Source: Longimicrobiales bacterium
GTDB taxonomy: Bacteria > Gemmatimonadota > Gemmatimonadetes > Longimicrobiales > Gaopeijiaceae
Assembly: GCA_965203485.1 (NCBI GenBank)
Contig: OZ241892.1
Coordinates: 205,786 to 269,785 of the forward strand
Length of the DNA stretch: 64,000 bases
Direction: 5' to 3'
How positions within the stretch are numbered: position 1 is the stretch's first letter; each line of letters begins with the position of its first letter. The notes beneath the pieces are model-generated. The model ran no database searches, was not told the origin of the DNA, and was given only the letters and a program-made list of their open reading frames with translations. A program made the position numbers and the translations under genes. Of this stretch, positions 6,982 through 43,913 are shown piece after piece.

Positions 6982-8346
6982 CTAGTCCTTGTTCCCGGAT
7001 CCGCGAATGCGATACAGGCCGGGCGACTGCCGAACCATCAGCGGGCCCACGAGTATCTGGCGAGCGCGAGCGAGCGAGTATCCCTCGGCGAGCATGCGCG
7101 CCGAGAACTCGGTGCTGGCGATTACGTTCCCCGCGGCCCGCGCCAGCCGCATCCCGGCAGCCTCCGCCTCCGACAGCGGTTGTGCGTGGCGGGCGCCTTC
7201 GGCCAAGCGGACCAACTTGCCGGACACGTCGAAGTCCGGATGGCTCGAGAGCAGCAACCGCACCACCGGAGGCGGTGGCGAGACGCCGCACCTCCGAGCG
7301 ACCGCCACGGCCAGCTCGGCCGCGCTCAGCGCCTCCGCAACCGACAGCACCTTGCGCGCGGTCCGCACCAACACGTTCTCGCGGGCGGGCAGGGCCACGA
7401 GCCACCCGCTCCGCTCCCGCAACCGCCTTCCCTCGGGGGTCAACGCGGTCACGACGTCGTCGGAGCGGATGCCGTCGTCCGCTCCACCCCAGAACTTCGC
7501 CACTGCGCCCACGCGGCCGAGTTCCCTTCGCGCCACGCTCACGCGCGCCTTGAAGCGCACCGCGTACACTGCGGCGTCCGCCTCGGACCCGGGCACGACC
7601 CACTGCATGATGTCGCCGTGCCAAGCGATCTCCGGCATGAGCCGCAACCGTGCCAGGGAGGGCAGCACGCACAAGTCGGCCTCGTTCACCGACAGTCCGC
7701 GCTCGCGGCACGTCGCCACGATCGTCGCGGGCCCCGCCATGCCTCCGGCTCGCTTCACCACGGCCGCGACCGCGCAAGCGATGGGCAACCGAAGGCCGGA
7801 CGAGGTCAGCAACGCGGCGTGCTGGGCGCATACTTGCCGGACGCGTTCGCGCGTCACGCCGAACTCCGCTCCCAGCGCCTCGAGCGTCGGCACGGGGCCG
7901 TGACCGGCGCCCAGCCGGCGCAGGAAGGCATCGGCGTCCCTGGCGCGCAGACCCGCCACCAAGCCGCGCACCTCCGCCGAAAGCGTCTTCGCCGAAGCGA
8001 CGGCGACGACGATCGCGGCGGGCAGCAAGCGCCACGGACTGTCGGCGCCGGGGCGGGCCAGCGCCGCTATCTGCTTCGGGGACAGCGAGGCCAGCGCGCC
8101 GACCAGCTCTTGGATGCGCGCCAGATCGCTGGGGGCCATTTCAGGCACGCTTCGGATGCGGCGCTGGCCCGCGCCCAGCACGTCGCCGAACGTGGCGTAG
8201 CCGGCCCGGGCCAGCGCGGCCGAGGCGCGGGAGCTCAAGCCGAGCGACGATACGGGCAGACCGGCGAGTTCGCGCGGCAGTCCCCTGTTGCCGCTCCGCC
8301 CCGGCGGCGTCTTGCCCTTCTCCCGCCGCCCGCCGTTCGCCACCAT
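6982..8346 (-). CDS. Hypothetical DNA-binding protein with RNAP alpha-CTD-like HhH and sigma-70 region-4-like HTH
   Basis: ATG at 8346, 48 nt after the stop of the upstream protease. 'LSSRASAALARAGYATFGDVL...SDLARIQEL' is HhH-like. 'TLEALGAEFGVTRERVRQVCAQHAALL' is region-4-like. Length is 454 aa. Confidence 0.55.
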   Translation of the reverse strand: MVANGGRREKGKTPPGRSGNRGLPRELAGLPVSSLGLSSRASAALARAGYATFGDVLGAGQRRIRSVPEMAPSDLARIQELVGALASLSPKQIAALARPGADSPWRLLPAAIVVAVASAKTLSAEVRGLVAGLRARDADAFLRRLGAGHGPVPTLEALGAEFGVTRERVRQVCAQHAALLTSSGLRLPIACAVAAVVKRAGGMAGPATIVATCRERGLSVNEADLCVLPSLARLRLMPEIAWHGDIMQWVVPGSEADAAVYAVRFKARVSVARRELGRVGAVAKFWGGADDGIRSDDVVTALTPEGRRLRERSGWLVALPARENVLVRTARKVLSVAEALSAAELAVAVARRCGVSPPPPVVRLLLSSHPDFDVSGKLVRLAEGARHAQPLSEAEAAGMRLARAAGNVIASTEFSARMLAEGYSLARARQILVGPLMVRQSPGLYRIRGSGNKD

Positions 8347-33503: not shown

Positions 33504-33689
33504 CGGCCGCCGAGTCAGCGTCGACTGCGCCGCGGCCGCGTGTCCGCCCCCCGACCTCGGCCGCTCTCCTTGCAGCGTGGGCCGCTCGATCGTAGATTCC
33601 TGCATTGTGCGTGCGTCCGTGCAACTCCAACCCACTCGCTCCGGCCGTGTTCCGGCGAGATGATGGACAACCCTAACGCCGAGGCTGCA

Positions 33690-34865
33690 ATGTTCCTCCA
33701 CGAGGTTATTCTCAGCAATGTTCTGTCGTTCGGTTCTGAGACTACCCTAGGGATGAAGCCCCTGAACGTCCTCGTCGGACCAAACGGCTCTGGCAAGTCT
33801 AACTTCATCGAGGCCCTTGGGTTGGTACGCGCCGCGCCAACCGACATTCGCGTACCAATCCGAGAAGGGGGAGGCATTGTGGATTGGCTGTGGAGAGGGA
33901 AGTGCCGACCCTCGTCGGCTCGCCTGGAAGTCGTGGTGGACAACCCTGGAAGGCAACAGTCGCTCCGCTATAGTCTGGAGTTTGGGGCAAGCGCCGGGCG
34001 CTTCGAGCTATTGACCGAAAAACTCGAGAATCAACACCCATATCCTGGCAAGAACGACCCGTACATTTACCTGACCTCCACCGGCGGACGGGCCACGTTG
34101 AACTACCGTGACCCCCACAATGAGCAGCAACGTCGACAACTCCGACCGGAAGATGTCGATTTCGATCAATCCATCCTAGCGCAGAGGAAGGATCCAGATC
34201 ACTATCCAGAGATCACATACTTGGGACGCCAGCTAGGCAAGATGCGTCTGTATCGTGAGTGGACCTTTGGGCGCAACACGCCTCCGAGACTGCCGCAGAA
34301 GCCCGACCTTCCCAACGACTTTCTCTTGGAAGACGGCAGCAATCTTGGACTCATCCTCAGCCGCTTGGCGTTGGATGTCGAGACGAAGCAAGCCGTGCTG
34401 GAGGCGTTGCATCAGCTATACGACGGCATATCTAACTTTCACGTCGTTGTCCAAAATAACGCCGCCCAGTTGTTCTTGCAGGAAGGCAACATGATGATTC
34501 CCGCGACGAGATTGTCAGACGGCACTCTGAGGTACCTGTGCTTGTTGACCGTGTTGTGCGACCCCGAGCCGCCCCCGCTAGTGTGCTTGGAGGAGCCGGA
34601 GCTGGGTCTTCACCCGGACGTGTTGCCGCAGTTGGCCGACCTTCTGCGCGACGCTTCCCGGCGATGTCAGTTGGTCGTCACCACGCATTCGGACACGTTG
34701 GTCGATGCGCTCACTGAAGACGCGGACGTGGTCGTGGTGTGCGAGAAGCATGACGGCAAGACAACTATGAAGCGGCTGGATCCGGCAAAACTGTCCGATT
34801 GGCTGAAGGAATACCGCTTGGGCCAACTGTGGAGTGCAGGAAAGATCGGGGGGAACAGATGGTGA
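33690..34865 (+). CDS. ABC-type AAA ATPase (AAA_21/AAA_15-like)
   Basis: ATG 33690 is preceded by GAGG; an alternative ATG lies at 33660. 'MFLHEVILSNVLSF', Walker A 'GPNGSGKSN', 'LSDGTLRYLCLL', Walker B 'LVCLEEPELGLHP', 'VVTTHS'. Confidence 0.85.
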   Translation: MFLHEVILSNVLSFGSETTLGMKPLNVLVGPNGSGKSNFIEALGLVRAAPTDIRVPIREGGGIVDWLWRGKCRPSSARLEVVVDNPGRQQSLRYSLEFGASAGRFELLTEKLENQHPYPGKNDPYIYLTSTGGRATLNYRDPHNEQQRRQLRPEDVDFDQSILAQRKDPDHYPEITYLGRQLGKMRLYREWTFGRNTPPRLPQKPDLPNDFLLEDGSNLGLILSRLALDVETKQAVLEALHQLYDGISNFHVVVQNNAAQLFLQEGNMMIPATRLSDGTLRYLCLLTVLCDPEPPPLVCLEEPELGLHPDVLPQLADLLRDASRRCQLVVTTHSDTLVDALTEDADVVVVCEKHDGKTTMKRLDPAKLSDWLKEYRLGQLWSAGKIGGNRW

Positions 34866-35464
34866 CGGTGTTTGTCGAAGGAGGAGGAGATACACGCGAA
34901 CTGAAAAGCCGTTGCCGCAAAGGGTTTAGCGAGTTCTTTCGCCACGCCGGCCTTAAGAACCGAATGCCTCGCGTTGTAGCGTGCGGTGGGCGGGGCAACG
35001 CCTACGACAAATTCTGCCGTAGCTTGGACATTCCGGTGGACGGCCATGTTGCCATCCTGCTCGTCGACAGTGAGGAGCAAGTCAGCCAAGAAGTTGGGCC
35101 ATGGTCCCACTTGCGAAAGCGGGATGGGTGGCAGAAGCCGCCGGGTGCCACTGACGACCAGGCGCAACTGATGGTTCAGTGCATGGAGGCGTGGTTCTTG
35201 GCGGACAGGGAATGCTTGGCGAAGGTCTTTGGCAAGGATTTTCGAGCAAAAGCGCTTCCGGGCAGTAAAGACATCGAAGGAATCGCGAAGGAAGACGTGA
35301 TGGCCGGCCTCAAGAAAGCGACACGCCGTGGCGGAAAGCTGTACCACAAGGGCCGTCATTCATTCGTCTTGTTGGCGAAGATCGACCCGAAGAAGGTTGC
35401 CGACGCCTCGCCACACGTAAAGCGACTGCTTGACTGCCTCGACCGGGTGTCGTGCGCGACGTGA
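34859..35464 (+). CDS. DUF4276-family protein (TOPRIM-like pattern)
   Basis: The ATG overlaps the ATPase stop by 7 nt (ATGGTGA). 'MVTVFVEGGGD' plus the acidic 'ILLVDSEEQ' and 'MEAWFLAD'. 201 aa. Confidence 0.8.
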   Translation: MVTVFVEGGGDTRELKSRCRKGFSEFFRHAGLKNRMPRVVACGGRGNAYDKFCRSLDIPVDGHVAILLVDSEEQVSQEVGPWSHLRKRDGWQKPPGATDDQAQLMVQCMEAWFLADRECLAKVFGKDFRAKALPGSKDIEGIAKEDVMAGLKKATRRGGKLYHKGRHSFVLLAKIDPKKVADASPHVKRLLDCLDRVSCAT

Positions 35465-35562: not shown

Positions 35563-35965
35563 TTAGTTGGTGACCAAGGGCACGCCTTCTGCCGAAGCCG
35601 CACTTCGGAGTCGGTTGTCCAGGGTAGCCAGCGGGAGCCGTCGTCGGCCAGCGAGCGCCAAATAGGCGGCGTCATAGGCCGACAGCTTCCGGCGGCGCGC
35701 TACTTCCAGGATGTCCGCGTCCTCGTCGCCTTCGTCGACTGTGATCGGAAGTTGGGCCAAAAAGGCCAGCGTATCGGCTACCTCCCGGGAGTTCTATTCG
35801 CCCTCGTCGCTCGGCAACCAGCAGTGCGTTCAGCATCTCGTATCGCCATATCCTGGGAACGACAGCGCCGGTCCGCACGACTTGTCGCATCACTTCCTCG
35901 GTTTCCGGGGTGCCCTCGTCGGCCAGGACCCAGGACAGCGCGACCGAAGCGTCCAGAACGATCAA
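35563..35965 (-). pseudogene. VapC-like PIN-domain toxin interrupted by one frameshift (near 35781-35800)
   Basis: The N-terminal half from TTG 35965 reads 'LIVLDASVALSWVLADEG...PRIWRYEMLNALLVAERRGRI'. The C-terminal half, in another frame, reads '...EVADTLAFLAQLPITVDEGDEDADILEVARRRKLSAYDAAYLALAGRRRLPLATLDNRL'. Confidence 0.55.
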
Positions 35966-36286
35966 CGGCGACGCCCCTCGTGAATCCAGCGCACCAGTTC
36001 GGCAAGCGGAACGGTCCGCAGGCGCGCGCGCCGTGTTTCGAATCCGCCCTGCGGCTTGGGAAGCTCTCCGCCTTGCGTCGTCTTCCACGGGCACTAGCCG
36101 GGCGATGGGGCATCCGTGTCTCGTAGTCGGCACGGCTGGCCTCCTTCTGGCCGCATAAATCGACTGGTCGTTTAAGACTGGACGGTTCTGACGGTACTGG
36201 CTCCTCTCGGATTCGATCAAGCCCGCGACCTGTGCGCCAAGGTCCCGGAACCATACCTTGGTCCCCGTGACCGCCCCCGACCTCAT
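35962..36286 (-). pseudogene. Phd/YefM-like antitoxin remnant, probably frame-disrupted
   Basis: 'TKVWFRDLGAQVAGLIES...RQNRPVLNDQSIYAA...TTRHGCPIARLVPVED' reads in one frame. The expected C-terminus '...PLAELVRWIHEGRRR*' is in another frame, and its TGA overlaps the toxin TTG (TTGA). Confidence 0.35.
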
Positions 36287-38039
36287 CCGCCGCCTGGTGC
36301 GCGAAGCCGTGGCGCGCCCGCTGACCGCCCCCGGCGCCGAAGCGCTCCCCCGCGCCACCATCGGCGACATCGACCTTGCGGCTTCCGCCTCAACCACCGA
36401 CGCCGCCATGCGAGCCGAATGGCGCGTGCTGTCCGCAGCCGTCGCCCGGCGTTGCCTGCTGCTGGCCGACGACCCCAAGCGCCCCGGCCGCCTCCGCGTC
36501 CTGGGCCCGGTCACGCACCAAGGCCCAGTGCGCTCCGTGGACGCCAGCCACCTGGCCAAGTCGCTCGAATCGCTGGCGGACCTGTCGCCCCTGGAAGCGG
36601 TGCGCCGGCTGACGGCCGAGCTGAACCGCGCCGCGGGGAACGGGCTGGCCTTCAACGGCCTCCTCACCCGTCACACGCTGGAATCCCGCTGTCGGCGCGA
36701 CCCTGCCCGATGGGAGCGCGCCCGCCGCGCGGTGGCCGACCTCCCGCCCGCGCCGAGCTCGTGGCGCCAGACGTTGTCGGCGCTGGGCTACCGCCTGGAC
36801 CGCCTTCCGCGACGGGGATACTTGGCCGTCCACGAAGGCCGGCCGGTGGCGGTCGTGCATCCCAAGAAGACGAGCGCGCTGGCCCGCTTGGACAGCGACG
36901 GCCGCCCGCCCGAGGGACTGCTGGCGGCGGACTGCAAGCAACGAGGCGCTCGCTACGGCATTCTGGCGTTTCGCGGCTACTTCCGTCTGTTCGACATGGA
37001 GTCCCCCGGCGGAACCCGTCACTGGCTCGAACTGGACGACGACCTGCTGGACGACGACCGGCGCGCCTTCCTGGCGTTGCTGGCGCCCCCGTCCCTGGTC
37101 GGCGACGGCTTCGCCAACCTGCAACAGGAGGCGATCAACTTCGGCGTCCGGCTGCGTGCCCGGCTGGACCGCACGATCCGTCAGGAGGCCCTTCCCGCGC
37201 TGGCCGCCGACATGGAGCACTGGGCCAAGGAGCACGGCCTGGACCTGCACGACGACGCCCAGCGCGACAAGCTGGAGAAGGCCGCGATGACGCTGGGCTT
37301 CCGCGCCGTCTTCATCCTCTTTGCGGAAGCCGCCGACCATCTGCCGATGAACAACGAATCCTACCGCAAGGCGTCGCTGTCGGAGCTTGTAACCGAGGCC
37401 CACGCGACCAAGGGCAAGCTGAGCCCGGCGTCGTCCGCGCTGTGGAACGGGTTCACGCGGCTGGTCAAGGCGATGCGATCCGGCAACCCGGCGTGGGACG
37501 TGCCCGCCTACAACGGCGCACTCTTCGCGGCCAAGGACTTCGCGGGCGCCGAGCTGCTGGAGCGGATGGAGCTGCGCGCCCCCGAGTTCGGGCGCGTGCT
37601 GTCGGCCGTCGGCCACGACGCCGAGCAAGGGAGGGGAGTGGACTTCTCGACGCTGGAGATCGCCCACATCGGCCATACCTACGAGTCCCTGCTGGGCCTG
37701 CGCCTGTCGCTGGCCGCCCGCCCGCTCCGCTACGACGCCGCCCGTAGCGACGCCCCCGTCAGTGGCCGCTCCTCCGCTCTCCGTGCCGAGGACGCCTTCC
37801 CGAGGCTCCACTGGGTGATCGTCCGGGGCGAGAGCGGCCACGATGCCCGTCAGATGGCCCCTGAGTGGGCGCGCACCGTCCGGGACCATTGTGCCGCTAG
37901 CGGCGTACCGTTCTTCTTCAAGCAGTGGGGCGGTCGGACCCCGAAGGCGGGTGGCCGGGAACTGGACGGTACGACCCGGGACGGCTTTCCCGTCCCCGAC
38001 AACACGGTCCTGCTCGTCGGCAACGCAGCGTTTCCGTAG
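36258..38039 (+). pseudogene. Chimeric ORF: N-terminal half of a PglX/type-IIG-like enzyme fused to a DUF5131 (phage Gp37/Gp68) C-terminus
   Basis: 'ARYGILAFRGYFRLFD', 'FILFAEAADHLPMNNESY', 'PAYNGALF' and 'LEIAHIGHTYESLLGL' are typical of the pre-methylase region. No (D/N)PPY motif follows. From about 37800, 'LHWVIVRGESGHDARQMAPEWARTVRDHCAASGVPFFFKQWGG' is DUF5131-like. Confidence 0.55.
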
Positions 38040-38177
38040 CGCCCCTCCCGGCCATGCCGCTTGTTGATCCCAGGTGGTGATGTTATCGTGTAGGATACGA
38101 TGAGTACCATTGGGGAGAGCGAATGTCACACGAGGTGGCACACACAATCCAAGGGACATTCCAACAGGAGTCGACGA

Positions 38178-38672
38178 ATGAAACGACGAGTATTCTACAG
38201 CTTCCACTACCAGCCGGACAGCTGGCGTGCGAGCCAAGTGCGCAACATGGGTGTCGTTGAGGGCAACCAGCCCGCATCCGACAATGATTGGGAGGCGATC
38301 ACCGAGGGGGGTGAAAACGAAATCGAGGACTGGATCGACGATCAGATGCACGGTAGGTCCTGCGTTGTCGTATTGGTCGGCACCAACACGGCAGAGCGAA
38401 AATGGATCGACTACGAGATCAGAAAGGGATGGAAGGACGGCAAGGGCGTGGTCGGGATTCGCGTCCACGGGCTTAGGGACCAGGACCGCCAAGTATCAAG
38501 GCCAGGCAAGAATCCTTTCGCTCACATGTCGATAGGCGACAAATCTTTTTCGTCCATCGTAAAGTGTTACAATCCCGCCGGTTCGACCAGTCAGGATCGC
38601 TATGCCTGGATCAATGAAGACCTTGTATCGACAATCGAGGAAGCGATACAGATACGCAACGACTACAGCTAA
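38178..38672 (+). CDS. TIR-like domain protein (DUF1863 / ThsB-type)
   Basis: ATG preceded by AGGAG. 'MKRRVFYSFHYQPDSWRASQVRNMG', 'SCVVVLVGTNTAERKWIDYEIRKG'. 164 aa, visibly lower G+C. Confidence 0.85.
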   Translation: MKRRVFYSFHYQPDSWRASQVRNMGVVEGNQPASDNDWEAITEGGENEIEDWIDDQMHGRSCVVVLVGTNTAERKWIDYEIRKGWKDGKGVVGIRVHGLRDQDRQVSRPGKNPFAHMSIGDKSFSSIVKCYNPAGSTSQDRYAWINEDLVSTIEEAIQIRNDYS

Positions 38673-38686
38673 CAGGAAGAACTCCA

Positions 38687-39844
38687 ATGTCGTGCTCCTA
38701 TGAAGTTGTTCTTCTGCACCGTGGTCTCGACCAGTTTGCCGATGAGGTTGCTAATGATGTGAATCAGGCGGCAGACGGGGTCTTGGGACGTTCCGGTGTT
38801 TTGCGATGTAGCACGGCACTCCCTCAAGCAAACAACACGGCCCACGTCGTGGTTGTCTACCTGGGCAACAAAGCTGGCCAACGGGATGATGCCATTCGCA
38901 GAGCACTGAGTCGAGCACTCAAGTCACATTTCCCGATTCTTCCAATCGTGCGACGAGAAGATTTTGGTGATATCCATGAGAAGCTTCCGTCAGCTATCTC
39001 GCAAGTCAATACGATCAACTGGAACGACACCCCGGATCGAGCGGTGACAACTATTCTGGGGATGCTTGGGCTTGTGACGCAAGAGCGCAGGGTGTTTCTG
39101 TCATACGTTCGACGCGATTCAGGCCCAGTGGCGGAACAGCTACACGGGTTGCTCGTGCAGTCCGGCTTCGACGTGTTTTTAGATCGATTCACCGTTCCAC
39201 CGGGAAGTGACTTCAGCGAACGAATCGACGACGAGCTGGCCGACAAAGCTTTTGTGGTTCTTTTGGAGAGTCCTGGACTAGCGGAATCCAAGTGGGTCGA
39301 ACACGAGATTTCATACGCTCTACAACATCGAATCGAAATACTGGCTGTCGCATTGCCCAGTGCGAGCGAACCGACTCCATTGATTGACGATGCCTTCCGC
39401 ATTGACCTTGGGGAACAAGATTTCTCGGGTGGCAAGCTCACCGAGAGTGCATCGAATGCGCTTATCGGGAAGATTGAATTTGCCCACGCACGCGCAATTC
39501 GGAGACGTCGTGAGCAGATACTTGGCACGCTTACCGGGAGGCTCGATGAATTTGACCACACTTGGACTCCGATTGGGACATGGACGATTCAGGCTTTGTC
39601 GCCTGACAGCGTTTCCTCGGTGTACCGCGTCACGCCCCGTCGCCCACGATCGCATGATATGTATGCACTTGACATCGAACGGACCAAGGTCAGTTCGCCT
39701 AATGCTACCAGCACGCGGGCATCCGTCGTGCATGGTGGGGGACGCATCGACGAGCGAAAGCAAGCTGTATTGGAGTGGATTGGCCAGGCAACTCACATGG
39801 CGGTCAGGTCGATCGACACATGGACTCAGGATGTGGCGGCTTAG
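38687..39844 (+). CDS. TIR-domain protein with extra N- and C-terminal regions
   Basis: Starts 14 nt after the previous stop and is preceded by AGGAAG. The central TIR reads 'RRVFLSYVRRDSGPVAEQLHGLLVQSGFDVFLDRFTVPPGSDF...AFVVLLESPGLAESKWVEHEISYAL'. 385 aa. Confidence 0.8.
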   Translation: MSCSYEVVLLHRGLDQFADEVANDVNQAADGVLGRSGVLRCSTALPQANNTAHVVVVYLGNKAGQRDDAIRRALSRALKSHFPILPIVRREDFGDIHEKLPSAISQVNTINWNDTPDRAVTTILGMLGLVTQERRVFLSYVRRDSGPVAEQLHGLLVQSGFDVFLDRFTVPPGSDFSERIDDELADKAFVVLLESPGLAESKWVEHEISYALQHRIEILAVALPSASEPTPLIDDAFRIDLGEQDFSGGKLTESASNALIGKIEFAHARAIRRRREQILGTLTGRLDEFDHTWTPIGTWTIQALSPDSVSSVYRVTPRRPRSHDMYALDIERTKVSSPNATSTRASVVHGGGRIDERKQAVLEWIGQATHMAVRSIDTWTQDVAA

Positions 39845-39846
39845 CG

Positions 39847-40473
39847 ATGGATTCCCTTGGGGGGCGCCACGTCTTTCTGTCGGCGAGCTTTCCTTCCGGC
39901 GAAAGGGGAGAAGCAGTGCGGCCGTACGATCCATCAGCCGTCGCCGATGCCGTAACGGCCCTGGTGCGGGCTGTACTATCCCGCGACGGCAGGTTGCTGT
40001 TCGGAGGGCATCCTACCATTACGCCGCTGGTGCTCGCGATCGCCATGGAGCATCGCTCCAAGCACTCGGTGGACGTCTTCCAGTCGGAATGGTTTCGGGG
40101 GCGGGTTACATCGGAAACCAAGAGGCTGGCAAGCCTTGGCTATGGAGACGTCCATTGGACAGAGAGGCGTGGTGACCTGGATCGCACACTGAGGACGATG
40201 CGGCGGCGGATGCTGAGTTTTGGACAGATCGCCGGGGCGGTGTTCGTGGGTGGGATGGATGGTATCGAAGAGGAGCACCGAATGCTTGGGCACATGCTGC
40301 CGGGTGTTCCGAGGATACCCGTGCGTGGCCCAGGCGGAGCGGCGGCACGGTTGCAGACGATGGAGGCTGAGGTTCCAGAATACTTGGCGCGACAACTCGA
40401 TTCGAGAGCCTATCCGCTCCTTTCGTCGAAGATCGTGGAATACCTGATTGCCTCTGATTCGAGGCCTCGCTAG
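39847..40473 (+). CDS. Stand-alone SLOG/LOG-like Rossmann protein (TPALS-like, tentative)
   Basis: The ATG is 2 nt after the TIR stop. 'RHVFLSASFP...', 'GRLLFGGHPTITPLVL', 'IAGAVFVGGMDGIEEEHRML' and 'IPVRGPGGAA' resemble the SLOG glycine-rich motifs. 208 aa with no other domain. Confidence 0.6.
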   Translation: MDSLGGRHVFLSASFPSGERGEAVRPYDPSAVADAVTALVRAVLSRDGRLLFGGHPTITPLVLAIAMEHRSKHSVDVFQSEWFRGRVTSETKRLASLGYGDVHWTERRGDLDRTLRTMRRRMLSFGQIAGAVFVGGMDGIEEEHRMLGHMLPGVPRIPVRGPGGAAARLQTMEAEVPEYLARQLDSRAYPLLSSKIVEYLIASDSRPR

Positions 40474-41168: not shown

Positions 41169-43913
41169 TCAGTGGAAGATCTGGAAGCCGAAGTTGAACG
41201 ACCGCGGGTATCCGAGGAAGATCTCTGCGTCGTCGGCCTTGTGGCTCGGTCGGCCGCGGGCCCTCTCGGCGTCGTCGCGGTAGGCGTTGAATCTGGAGTT
41301 GTCGGTCGCGTCCTGCACGTACACTGCGTCCGTGACGTTGAAGATGTTCATGAACAGCCTCACGTTGCCTCCGAAGGCCGCCGCCACGTCGGACGCCAAT
41401 CGGTAGGACATGTGGACGTCGAAGACCGTGTATCCGGGAGGACTCCACGACTGCACGCCTTCGTCCGCGCCGTCCGTCCGATCGAAGGGATTGTAGTTTG
41501 CATAGTGCTTGCCGAAGGTCTTGCCGACGCCTTGCACGTACAGCCCGCCGGTGGGGAACAGAGACAGCGCGTACGCGACTTGGAACTGCGGCGCGTCGCC
41601 TACGTACAGGTCCCTGACGTAGAAGGTGTACTGCTCCGTCTCCGATCGCCGGTCGTCGGGCCGGTACTCGCCCTCGGCGTTGGCGGTGTGCTTCCAGTCG
41701 CCCCAGGAGAGCGCGGCGTCGAAGCGCATGTAGTCCGTCGGCTGAAACGCGCCTTCCAGCTCCACGCCCATGTGGCGGGCGTCCAGGCCCAGCAGGTTGA
41801 TCAAGCCTTCGGTGTCCTCGTCGAGACGGATGTTGCGCGTGCGCGTCCGGTCGTTCCACTGCGTGAAGTAGATGTTCCCGTCGAGAGAGAAGCGGCGATC
41901 CAGCGAGCGGAACCGAGCGCCCGCCTCGAACGACAGGAAGGTCTCGTTCCTGGGATTGGCGTTGAGAAGGCCGTTGTTGTCGTCGATCACGCCGTCGAAG
42001 ATCGGAACCTTGGACACGTACCCGGCGTTGCCGTAGACGGACCACTCGGAGTTGACGTTGCGCATTGCGCCGCCCTTGAGCTGGTAGCCGGTCAGTCCGC
42101 CGCTGCTGAGCTCAAGGAATCCCCCGCCCATGCCCCTCCTGAAGAAGTCGGTGTAGTCGTAGGAGATGCGCGAGACGCCCATCATGCCGTAGAGGGAACC
42201 GGCCAGCGTGGACCGCTCGGCCTGCACGTGGGCGCCGATCCAGTTCACGTCGTTCTCGTTGTGGTAGTGAATCTTGTCGCCCAGACCCCGGTCGCCTTCG
42301 GCCTCCGTCCAGAACTCGGAACTGCAACCGCGGAAGCAGTCGTTGTAGAACGAGCCGCCCAACAAGTCCCGGACTTCGCGGTAGTGCTCGATCGTGGCGG
42401 TGCGCCAGTCGACGCCGAGCTCGGCGGCCCAATCCCCGCCGAAGTCCTTGTGCATCTTGGCGATGGCGCCGTACGTGTCCTGGTTGTTGACCGAGTTGCG
42501 GAGAATGCCGCGCGACGCGCCTTCGTCGCTGCCGCCGTTGCGCGCAATCGTCGCATTCCAGTTGGGGAACCTCTGGCCGTAGGTGTTGTCCCAGACAAGC
42601 GATCCGTACGTTCCTGTTCCGCCGCCTTGGCCGCCCGAGTAGTAGGCCACCGTGTTGAGCGTCCATCCGCCGCCGAAGGCCGAGTACCAGTTGAGGTTGA
42701 CCTGCGGCTTGTGGAAGTAGTTCTCGCGCTCGTTGATGAAGTTGGCGCTGTGCCTGCTGAAGACGCCGGCGCCGGGCCCGGTGCTGGTGAACTGGCGCCC
42801 CCTGTAGCTCGGGTCGACACCTCCGAAGTTTGGGCTCCAATAGCGGCCGGCCTCCGTGGAAAACCTCTCCAAGCCGCCCGGGTCGTAGCCTTCGAGGCCG
42901 GCGGCAAAGTCGCGGTTCAGAGTGGCGGCGTTGAGCTTGTACAGATTCTGCCCGTGCCGCTGGGGCGCGCCGACCGCGTAGAGTTCGACGCGGTTGTGGT
43001 CGCTGATCCTGTACTGCGAGGCCAGATAGTACGACCACGCGTCGGTCCACGTGCCGTCGATCAAGCCGTCGCCCGTCTTGCGCACGCCCGAGGCCGTCAG
43101 GGCGAACTTGCCGATCTGCCCGGTGGACGCCGTCATCGTCGTCTTGCGGAAGTTCCCGCTTCCAAACTCTTGCTTGAGGTTGTAGCCGGCCGACTGCTGG
43201 CTCGGGTCGGTGATCACGTTGAGCGTGCCGCCGATCGACGGCGTGGCCAGGTTGACCGCGCTCAGGCCGCGTTGCAACTGAATGCTCGTGGCGGCGTCGC
43301 CGAGTCCGTCCCAGTTCGACCAGTAGACCCAGCCGTTCTCCATGTCGTTGACGGGCACGCCGTTGATCATGACGGCCGTGTTGCGCTGGCTGAACCCGCG
43401 CACGTTGATGCGGGCGTCGCCTGCCCCGCCGCCTTGGGCCGTCGAGTACACGGACGGCGTGACGCTCAGCACCAGCGGCAGGTCGCGCGAGCCCAGCTGG
43501 CGCTGGATCTGCGGCTTGGCCACGTCGGTGAACGCCACCGGCGTCCGGCGCTCTTCGGCCCGCTCGGCGAGCACATCGATGCTTCCGAGCGCCACCGCGT
43601 TCGACGTCATCGCGAAGTCCACGACCGTGGCGCCGCCCGATTCGACCGCGACGTCCCGGCTCTCGGACACGAAGCCGATCATGCGCGCCGTCACGTGGTA
43701 CGCGCCGGCGGGCACGCCCATCACGTTGAAGCGCCCGTTGGCGTTCGTGATGCCGCCGTACTCGGCGCCGGTCTCGGTCTGCGCGACCACCACGTGCACG
43801 CCTTCCAACCCTCCCCCCTCCGCGGTGACCGCCCCGGTCACCGATCCCGTCTCCTGGGCGGTCGCGGGCATCGCGACCAGCCACAGGAGCCCCACAGCGC
43901 ACATCGACTTCAT
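41169..43913 (-). CDS. TonB-dependent receptor with N-terminal CarboxypepD_reg-like domain
   Basis: Signal 'LLWLVAMPATAQ'. 'GSVTGAVTA...GVHVVVAQ...NANGRFNVMGVPAGAYHVTARMIGF'. Plug 'INVRGFSQRNTAVMINGVPVND'. 914 aa beta-barrel with a C-terminal aromatic end. Confidence 0.9.
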   Translation of the reverse strand: MKSMCAVGLLWLVAMPATAQETGSVTGAVTAEGGGLEGVHVVVAQTETGAEYGGITNANGRFNVMGVPAGAYHVTARMIGFVSESRDVAVESGGATVVDFAMTSNAVALGSIDVLAERAEERRTPVAFTDVAKPQIQRQLGSRDLPLVLSVTPSVYSTAQGGGAGDARINVRGFSQRNTAVMINGVPVNDMENGWVYWSNWDGLGDAATSIQLQRGLSAVNLATPSIGGTLNVITDPSQQSAGYNLKQEFGSGNFRKTTMTASTGQIGKFALTASGVRKTGDGLIDGTWTDAWSYYLASQYRISDHNRVELYAVGAPQRHGQNLYKLNAATLNRDFAAGLEGYDPGGLERFSTEAGRYWSPNFGGVDPSYRGRQFTSTGPGAGVFSRHSANFINERENYFHKPQVNLNWYSAFGGGWTLNTVAYYSGGQGGGTGTYGSLVWDNTYGQRFPNWNATIARNGGSDEGASRGILRNSVNNQDTYGAIAKMHKDFGGDWAAELGVDWRTATIEHYREVRDLLGGSFYNDCFRGCSSEFWTEAEGDRGLGDKIHYHNENDVNWIGAHVQAERSTLAGSLYGMMGVSRISYDYTDFFRRGMGGGFLELSSGGLTGYQLKGGAMRNVNSEWSVYGNAGYVSKVPIFDGVIDDNNGLLNANPRNETFLSFEAGARFRSLDRRFSLDGNIYFTQWNDRTRTRNIRLDEDTEGLINLLGLDARHMGVELEGAFQPTDYMRFDAALSWGDWKHTANAEGEYRPDDRRSETEQYTFYVRDLYVGDAPQFQVAYALSLFPTGGLYVQGVGKTFGKHYANYNPFDRTDGADEGVQSWSPPGYTVFDVHMSYRLASDVAAAFGGNVRLFMNIFNVTDAVYVQDATDNSRFNAYRDDAERARGRPSHKADDAEIFLGYPRSFNFGFQIFH

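Follow-up and report, generated by a model that had tools for sequence, protein, structure and literature searches.

The three-gene operon at positions 38178 to 40473 of a 64,000-nucleotide stretch of contig OZ241892.1 from a Longimicrobiales bacterium (the whole stretch is called the window below) is very probably an intact, minimal type III Thoeris anti-phage operon with the gene order thsB-like TIR, thcB4, thcA, lying in a low-G+C defence island. We assign it to type III Thoeris because genes 2 and 3 exceed the NCBIfam equivalog cut-offs for ThcB4 and ThcA, gene 1 encodes a ThsB-type TIR, and the architecture fits the literature. As for its function, we favour a mechanism in which ThcB4, a TIR protein, and ThcA, a stand-alone SLOG protein, act together as a split effector. 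The type III identity and this mechanism taken as one explanation have, in our estimate, a probability of about 0.5.

Assignment to type III Thoeris

The product of gene 2 matched the NCBIfam (release 20) equivalog NF058526, "Thoeris type III ThcB4", with an E-value of 7.5e-70 and a score of 235.6 bits over profile positions 1-368 of 375; the curated cut-off is 220 bits. It also matched the PADLOC ThsB model PDLC00434 (E 4.6e-34), and 217 homologues were found at E <= 1e-5. The product of gene 3 contains the glycine-rich segments LLFGGHPTITPLV and AVFVGGMDGIEEE. It matched the NCBIfam equivalog NF058525, "Thoeris type III ThcA", with an E-value of 2.7e-47 and 160.8 bits (curated cut-off, 110 bits), as well as Pfam PF18180, the SLOG cluster3 family, with an E-value of 3.4e-32. 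A Foldseek search using the AlphaFold2 model of ThcA (pLDDT 93.9) revealed similarity with the LOG structures 5ajt (6.2e-6) and 5zbl, with DprA 4ljr and with TRPM SLOG-like domains, so that the SLOG fold of gene 3 is confirmed. An earlier note on this DNA had described gene 3 as a stand-alone SLOG/LOG-like Rossmann protein, in agreement with these matches. Its comparison of gene 3 with TPALS found no support, as the SLOG domain belongs to Pfam cluster 3 and no model in PADLOC-DB 2.0.0 matched the protein. The ThcA profile found no related entry among the PDB sequences, and a viral structure library contained no close relative.

The gene 1 protein begins with MKRRVFYSFHY and has a glutamate at the catalytic position, E80, within WIDYEI. 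It matched Pfam ThsB_TIR (E 2.5e-27) and the PADLOC ThsB model PDLC00433 (E 8.1e-70), which upholds the earlier description of a DUF1863/ThsB-type TIR-like protein. The closest solved structures are 8wcf_A (2.1e-37), ThsB1 (PDB ID 9b7d, 7e-16) and ThsB (PDB ID 6lhy, 7.1e-16), and the alignment with 9b7d placed KWIDYEI of gene 1 on WVRYEI. None of the NCBIfam models matched gene 1, and no ThcB1-3 model matched either gene 1 or the small TIR of any relative; for want of such a match, the single small ThsB-type TIR of the locus is not assignable to a particular ThcB1-3. We take gene 1 to be the variable small TIR component, with a presumed role as phage sensor and signal synthase. The PADLOC system PDC-M50B was also considered as the identity of the locus and was rejected: gene 1 matched it, but genes 2 and 3 match no PDC-M50 model.

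In the literature, type III Thoeris consists of several TIR proteins and a distinct SLOG protein. Its anti-phage activity was reported by van den Berg et al. (2024, Cell Host Microbe 32:1427); Yirmiya et al. (2025) cite them and rename the type III effector, ThcA, as ThsD. A 2026 review treats the type III SLOG as distinct from the STALD-type SLOG of ThsA. The type III signalling and effector mechanism is described as uncharacterised in the literature, and TadIII-1, a Pbunavirus protein, is a reported inhibitor of type III Thoeris whose mode of inhibition is described as unknown. The locus in the window shows a non-STALD SLOG protein in the ThcA size range of about 190-210 residues, with a ThcB4 of about 380 residues immediately upstream. 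The domain identities, the family membership, the gene order and the conservation of residues are established; the anti-phage function suggested for this particular trio rests on its defence-island context.

The earlier note had proposed both that the trio is a Thoeris-like signalling module and that it represents an undescribed system. The first proposal stands, but the second does not, because NCBIfam names genes 2 and 3 as type III Thoeris ThcB4 and ThcA. The trio thus belongs to a described subtype, although not to one with a known effector. The note was correct that no effector domain is recognisable and that no SIR2, membrane, nuclease or protease gene adjoins the trio. The question it raised about the effector is a real one, though workers in the field are already aware of it. 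That the trio is a Thoeris-like system not described before, apart from all named types, is very improbable. Such a system might be expected from the lack of a gene 3 model in PADLOC-DB 2.0.0, from the lack of a PDB entry related in sequence to ThcA and from the failure of gene 1 to match any NCBIfam Thc model. However, genes 2 and 3 fall under curated equivalogs for type III Thoeris proteins, the architecture agrees with the published description of type III, and homologues number in the thousands (2305 clusters for Pseudomonas ThcA; 420 species-level loci). The locus reveals no new kind of system; it is a distant, minimal type III Thoeris, with one small TIR, ThcB4, ThcA and no patatin, from a poorly studied phylum.

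Operon layout and composition

The layout given in the earlier note was verified in every respect, and all the peptide motifs quoted there are present in genes 1-3. The three genes are tightly packed on the + strand, with spacers of 14 nt between genes 1 and 2 and 2 nt between genes 2 and 3, so that ThcA starts 2 nt past the stop codon of gene 2. The G+C content is 0.51-0.61 in the three-gene block versus 0.69-0.72 in the flanks. Shine-Dalgarno-like sequences precede gene 1 (GGAG) and gene 2 (AGGAAG, 7 nt before the ATG). Homologues (the Longimicrobiales locus L001 and structure 8wcf) support the start of gene 1 at MKRR, and not at the upstream ATG at 38100. All three open reading frames (ORFs) are intact and retain every family-invariant residue.

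Conserved architecture in related loci

Gene 3 has homologues in 335 protein clusters at E <= 1e-5, and a scan of one genome per species found a relative of it encoded at 420 loci. With Pseudomonas ThcA as the query, 2305 clusters were obtained at E <= 1e-20; the proteobacterial branch is therefore large. Pseudomonas loci gave the best scores on the Thc models; in L042, ThcB4 reached 464 bits and ThcA 247. The nearest relatives of gene 3 are found in metagenome-assembled genomes (MAGs) of Longimicrobiales, with 80-82% identity; together with the background G+C of about 70%, this points to a Gemmatimonadota host. Among the three proteins, ThcA shows the strongest conservation, with 82% identity to the nearest relative versus 72% and 73% for the other two, and 38% to a Pseudomonas locus versus 29% and 34%.

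To describe the architecture, ORFs were called in 81 non-redundant related loci and labelled with phmmer and cluster hidden Markov models, and small TIRs were counted within -7/+6 kb. In 72 of the 81 loci the gene immediately 5' of ThcA, in the same orientation, is ThcB4. In relatives the two genes overlap by 4 nt, and rare ThcB4-ThcA fusions occur (P0185, 593 residues; L014, 624 residues). One to five small TIR-like ORFs accompany the pair in 60 of these 72 loci. They belong to four families, matching Pfam TIR_2 or ThsB_TIR, vary in number, and are found upstream, downstream or on the opposite strand. The other 12 loci lack a small TIR, and about half of them are truncated contigs. The order small TIR, ThcB4, ThcA recurs in L001 (Longimicrobiales), L017 (Chloroflexia), and L033 and L034 (Actinomycetota). 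The survey yields a testable division of labour, with ThcB4-ThcA as an invariant core and the small TIRs as a variable periphery. Small TIRs varying around a conserved module would be the same pattern as that of multiple ThsB proteins around one ThsA.

ThcB4-ThcA pairs were also seen on MAG contigs of Promethearchaeota (Asgard archaea), at 517-2375 of L019 and at about 6780-8657 of L022, with ThcA 36-38% identical to gene 3; the system therefore spans the divide between bacteria and archaea. Three Longimicrobiales MAGs (L006, L007 and L013) carry an orphan ThcA gene around position 8001 of the locus, 54-80% identical to gene 3, and tblastn found no ThcB4 or small TIR there. It appears that these orphans stayed behind when the TIR genes were lost.

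In Pseudomonas, Vibrio, Erwinia, Serratia and Alcaligenes, a protein of 538-558 residues that combines SLOG cluster2 with a patatin phospholipase is encoded between a ThsB gene and ThcB4. It clears the NCBIfam CBASS_lipase cut-off (220.6 vs 200) and may be a second effector gated by a TIR-made signal and sharing the island. The gene is present in 12 of the 81 loci and is absent from the Burkholderia loci and from the window. Because of this narrow distribution, we regard ThcB4-ThcA as an autonomous, widespread module.

The same observations bear on the explanation that the trio is incomplete, its effector being encoded elsewhere or lost, as with the SLOG2-patatin phospholipase of the proteobacterial relatives, and that it is non-autonomous or decaying. 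In the top-scoring loci for the Thc models (Pseudomonas, Vibrio, Erwinia and others) the patatin gene is indeed present between ThsB and ThcB4, the island around the trio shows clear signs of erosion in the form of a PIN fragment and of a chimeric ORF of restriction-modification (RM) and DUF5131 segments, and orphan ThcA genes without ThcB4 occur in the three related Longimicrobiales genomes mentioned above. However, most ThcB4-ThcA loci, from at least eight phyla and including those of Burkholderia, do without the patatin gene, which is confined to those 12 loci. Moreover, the three-gene order recurs in the four loci listed above, and the ORFs in the window are intact with every family-invariant residue. 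An incomplete system is thus improbable.

Two further kinds of neighbour were noted beside ThcB4-ThcA in relatives. In about 17 loci the pair is adjoined by a cassette of a small ThsB-like TIR, Nmad2 and MazG_C, together with a UDG-like gene or a gene for a 5-hmdU DNA kinase (HMUDK). A putative small membrane protein (130-230 residues; no Pfam or NCBIfam match) is encoded beside small TIR genes near the pair in 7 loci; such a protein and its TIR could form a separate TIR/membrane-effector pair. A megablast search of E. coli genomes with a Buttiauxella locus gave no match.

Domains and conserved residues of ThcB4 and ThcA

The AlphaFold2 model of ThcB4 (pLDDT 84.7) consists of an N-terminal alpha/beta domain, a TIR domain, a long arginine-rich helix and a C-terminal alpha/beta domain. 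The earlier note had recognised a canonical TIR with the W-x3-E glutamate in gene 2, and rightly so: the domain matched Pfam TIR_2 (8.8e-21), the protein contains SKWVEHEI, and the glutamate, E207, is kept in at least 90% of 41 homologues. The best match of the TIR in a fold search was the SARM1 TIR, with TM-scores of 0.68-0.71 normalised on the target, and a profile search gave SARM1 (8.9e-8) and 7uxr (9.6e-8). Its closest matches by fold and profile are the SARM1 TIR NAD+ hydrolase and the AbTir-type TIRs. Foldseek matches of the full-length model to EngA, Can2 and NMDA receptors were discarded as noise from tandem alpha/beta domains, with TM-scores below 0.27 and root-mean-square deviations above 18.

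The N-terminal domain of ThcB4 may represent a second, degenerate TIR-like domain that has no catalytic glutamate. At a domain E of 39, the alignment of residues 68-126 with the C-terminal half of the SARM1 TIR is weak and not significant. Pfam gave no match for the domain, and hhalign comparisons with TIR profiles (probability 8%) and SLOG profiles were not significant. The pattern ILPIVR...KLP..I..VN.I.W......A...IL..LGL within residues 1-126 echoes the C-terminal half of the SARM1 TIR (IVPIID...LPEDMQAVLTFNGIKW...IEKIIRF), a match that is itself non-significant. In the helix and C-terminal part, E264, H267, R273-R275, Q277, W299, R318, H349 and W364 are invariant. This part has no Pfam or PDB match, and hhalign comparisons with TIR and SLOG profiles were not significant.

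ThcA has seven polar residues that do not vary from bacteria to Asgard archaea, S12, R20, H55, Q79, S80, R119 and E143; they point to a predicted nucleotide-type pocket. The spacing from R to GG is 16 residues in both ThcA and LOG. We infer that R119 and E143 would correspond to the LOG arginine and to the glutamate of PGGxGTxxE, and go no further, because the profile comparison of ThcA with LOG is not significant; the correspondence would fit binding as well as catalysis.

Proposed mechanism

We propose the following mechanism. The small ThsB-type TIR of gene 1 would be a variable sensor that, upon recognition of a phage, converts NAD+ to a signal derived from ADP-ribose. ThcA, as a stand-alone non-STALD SLOG protein, would be the receptor of this signal, and ligand-bound ThcA would promote assembly or activation of the SARM1-like TIR of ThcB4. 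The activated TIR would then deplete NAD+ and abort the infection. This assignment, in which the small TIR senses the phage and makes the signal, ThcA receives it and the TIR of ThcB4 carries out the killing as an NADase, is offered tentatively, at a little under even odds. The sensor, the signal and the killing protein are all named here by inference. ThcB4 and ThcA together would then be a split TIR-SLOG counterpart of ThsA, the SIR2-SLOG effector of type I. We favour a split effector because ThcB4 and ThcA form an invariant, translationally coupled and occasionally fused pair, because the small TIRs vary as sensors do, and because ThcA has no output domain.

Several points weigh against this explanation. 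Gene 2 clears the NF058526 cut-off narrowly (235.6 vs 220). Similarity to SARM1 does not separate TIRs that deplete NAD from those that make signals. In the literature, the SLOG protein and not ThcB4 is labelled as the effector, and the name ThcB4 implies that its authors regard it as a ThsB-like signal producer. The rare fusions might have arisen artificially, through frameshift errors where the genes overlap in MAGs built from long reads. Finally, about 5-6 full-length loci have ThcB4 and ThcA with no detectable small TIR, which fits a self-sufficient pair better than an effector-only pair.

Some of these points lend themselves to a different division of roles, in which gene 1 and ThcB4 are both sensors and signal synthases and ThcA itself is the effector. 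The signal would then switch on a LOG-like N-glycosidase or other nucleotide processing in ThcA, and an essential pool would be depleted. The best folds for ThcA are indeed LOG phosphoribohydrolases (5ajt, 6.2e-6, and 5zbl), R119 and E143 are invariant across phyla at what would be a LOG-like Arg/Glu spacing, and in a few loci ThcB4 is the sole TIR protein accompanying ThcA. SLOG domains of the LOG clade are established N-glycosidases in the literature, which also calls the SLOG protein (ThsD) the effector. However, a profile-profile alignment of ThcA with LOG fell short of significance (probability 1.8%, first half only), and the fold resemblance to LOG is modest, with TM-scores around 0.5. 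In non-catalytic SLOG sensors such as ThsA, these Arg/Glu positions serve to bind ligand. An effector role of ThcA also leaves unexplained why a 385-residue, three-domain TIR protein is invariably coupled, and sometimes fused, to ThcA while the small TIRs vary. We consider this division of roles, the main rival to the split effector, rather unlikely.

If the split effector is correct, TIR domains would be both the signal makers and the executioner within one system. It is possible, and more tentative still than the mechanism above, that the operon employs either a ThcB4-ThcA split effector, in which a non-STALD SLOG controls a SARM1-like TIR NADase, or a SLOG protein that is a ligand-gated, LOG-like nucleotide hydrolase. 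Either would, if true, be an effector logic so far undemonstrated for Thoeris, for which the compact Gemmatimonadota trio would be a clean model.

Genomic neighbourhood

The trio sits in a small, eroded defence island (Table 1). Upstream lies HEC-01, a candidate defence pair, whose ORFs as called overlap by 67 nt and lie in a stretch of lower G+C content (0.54-0.60). It is followed by a PIN fragment, which is probably a frameshifted vapC pseudogene: the N-terminal PIN-like motif, IVLDASVALSW, occurs in another frame of a 331-residue ORF that overlaps the fragment, in the region upstream to about 36100. The chimeric ORF that directly precedes the Thoeris genes resembles the scar of a rearrangement. 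In one of the Longimicrobiales loci with an orphan ThcA (L007), DUF5131 is intact and located some 1 kb 5' of ThcA, with a 279-residue ORF without Pfam match between them. Downstream of the trio is a convergent gene for a TonB-dependent receptor. No tRNA, promoter or terminator signal was found to mark the island boundaries.

Table 1. Features of the operon and its surroundings in the window, and examples of genes accompanying ThcB4-ThcA in related loci.
Feature	Position	Strand	Basis or remark
Shine-Dalgarno-like GGAG, gene 1	38166..38169	+	8 nt before gene 1 ATG; read from sequence
Gene 1, ThsB-type (DUF1863) TIR-like protein, 164 aa	38178..38672	+	Pfam ThsB_TIR, PADLOC ThsB, structure matches
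Gene 2, ThcB4 (type III Thoeris TIR protein), 385 aa, three domains	38687..39844	+	NCBIfam NF058526
ThcB4 N-terminal alpha/beta domain, aa 1-126	38687..39064	+	AlphaFold2 secondary structure; no family match
ThcB4 catalytic TIR domain, aa 135-250, W203-x3-E207	39089..39436	+	Pfam TIR_2 8.8e-21, aa 136-243
ThcB4 long helix, aa 253-288 (AHARAxRRRREQ conserved), and C-terminal alpha/beta domain, aa 292-385	39443..39841	+	AlphaFold2 model
Gene 3, ThcA, stand-alone SLOG cluster-3 protein, 208 aa	39847..40473	+	Pfam PF18180, NCBIfam NF058525
HEC-01 candidate defence pair (AAA_21 ATPase and DUF4276)	33540-35464	+	PADLOC HEC-01A 3e-168, HEC-01B 3.1e-75
PIN fragment, 65-aa ORF	35563-35760	-	C-terminal third of PIN only, profile positions 74-118/120
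Chimeric 593-aa ORF	36258-38039	+	residues 250-495 resemble middle of type IIG RM/DrmMI; residues 516-578 are DUF5131 C-terminus
TonB-dependent receptor gene	41169-43913	convergent	downstream of trio
SLOG2-patatin gene	L042 5142-6764; L085 4158-5774; L087 4152-5768		12 loci in all
TIR/Nmad2/MazG_C cassette	L089 11268-14163; L077 4034-6471		Burkholderia, Pseudomonas, Erwinia, Bacteroidota, a cyanobacterium
Small membrane protein	L003 9302-9736; L035 9378-9773; L059 10334-11017; L072 10379-10897	- (L003, L072)	

Comparison with known systems

The operon shares with type I Thoeris a ThsB-type TIR (gene 1 vs 6lhy, 7.1e-16, and vs ThsB1 9b7d, 7e-16), a SLOG domain that presumably receives the TIR-made signal, and variable TIRs around a conserved module. 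It differs in that its SLOG belongs to Pfam cluster 3 and not to STALD, and in that this SLOG stands alone as a polypeptide, with a large TIR protein as its partner. Pfam and PADLOC scans of the three proteins and their neighbours found no match to the SIR2 domain of type I ThsA. Neither the trio nor the adjacent ORFs encode a Macro or transmembrane domain as in type II, or a peptidase/caspase-like domain as in type IV.

Within the SLOG superfamily, ThcA resembles LOG and DprA, which provide its best PDB folds (5ajt, 5zbl and 4ljr), and it has glycine-rich loops and an Arg/Glu pair that would lie at LOG-like spacing. It departs from LOG in two motifs: the GGGxxGLMG loop is replaced by GGH-P, and the PGGxGTxxE-like motif is longer by one inserted residue. 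Membership of the LOG family (Lysine_decarbox) found no backing in Pfam, in PDB sequences or in hhalign (1.8%), and the likeness is at the level of the fold.

The NAD+-depleting effectors SARM1, TIR-SAVED and TIR-STING are similar to ThcB4 in that its TIR is closest to the SARM1 TIR and keeps W-x3-E, and in the proposed switching by a ligand-binding partner. In contrast to them, the SLOG ligand module is here a protein of its own, ThcB4 carries additional domains at both ends, and its NADase activity is only predicted.

Compared with other type III Thoeris loci, the window has a single small TIR, whereas many relatives have two to five, and it is without the SLOG2-patatin neighbour of the model-best Pseudomonas and Vibrio loci. 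Its proteins are 29-38% identical to the proteobacterial ones, and its host phylum is Gemmatimonadota and not Pseudomonadota. It nevertheless agrees with type III in having a stand-alone cluster-3 SLOG gene directly 3' of the gene for a TIR protein of about 380 residues, at least one small ThsB-type TIR, and a location in a defence island.

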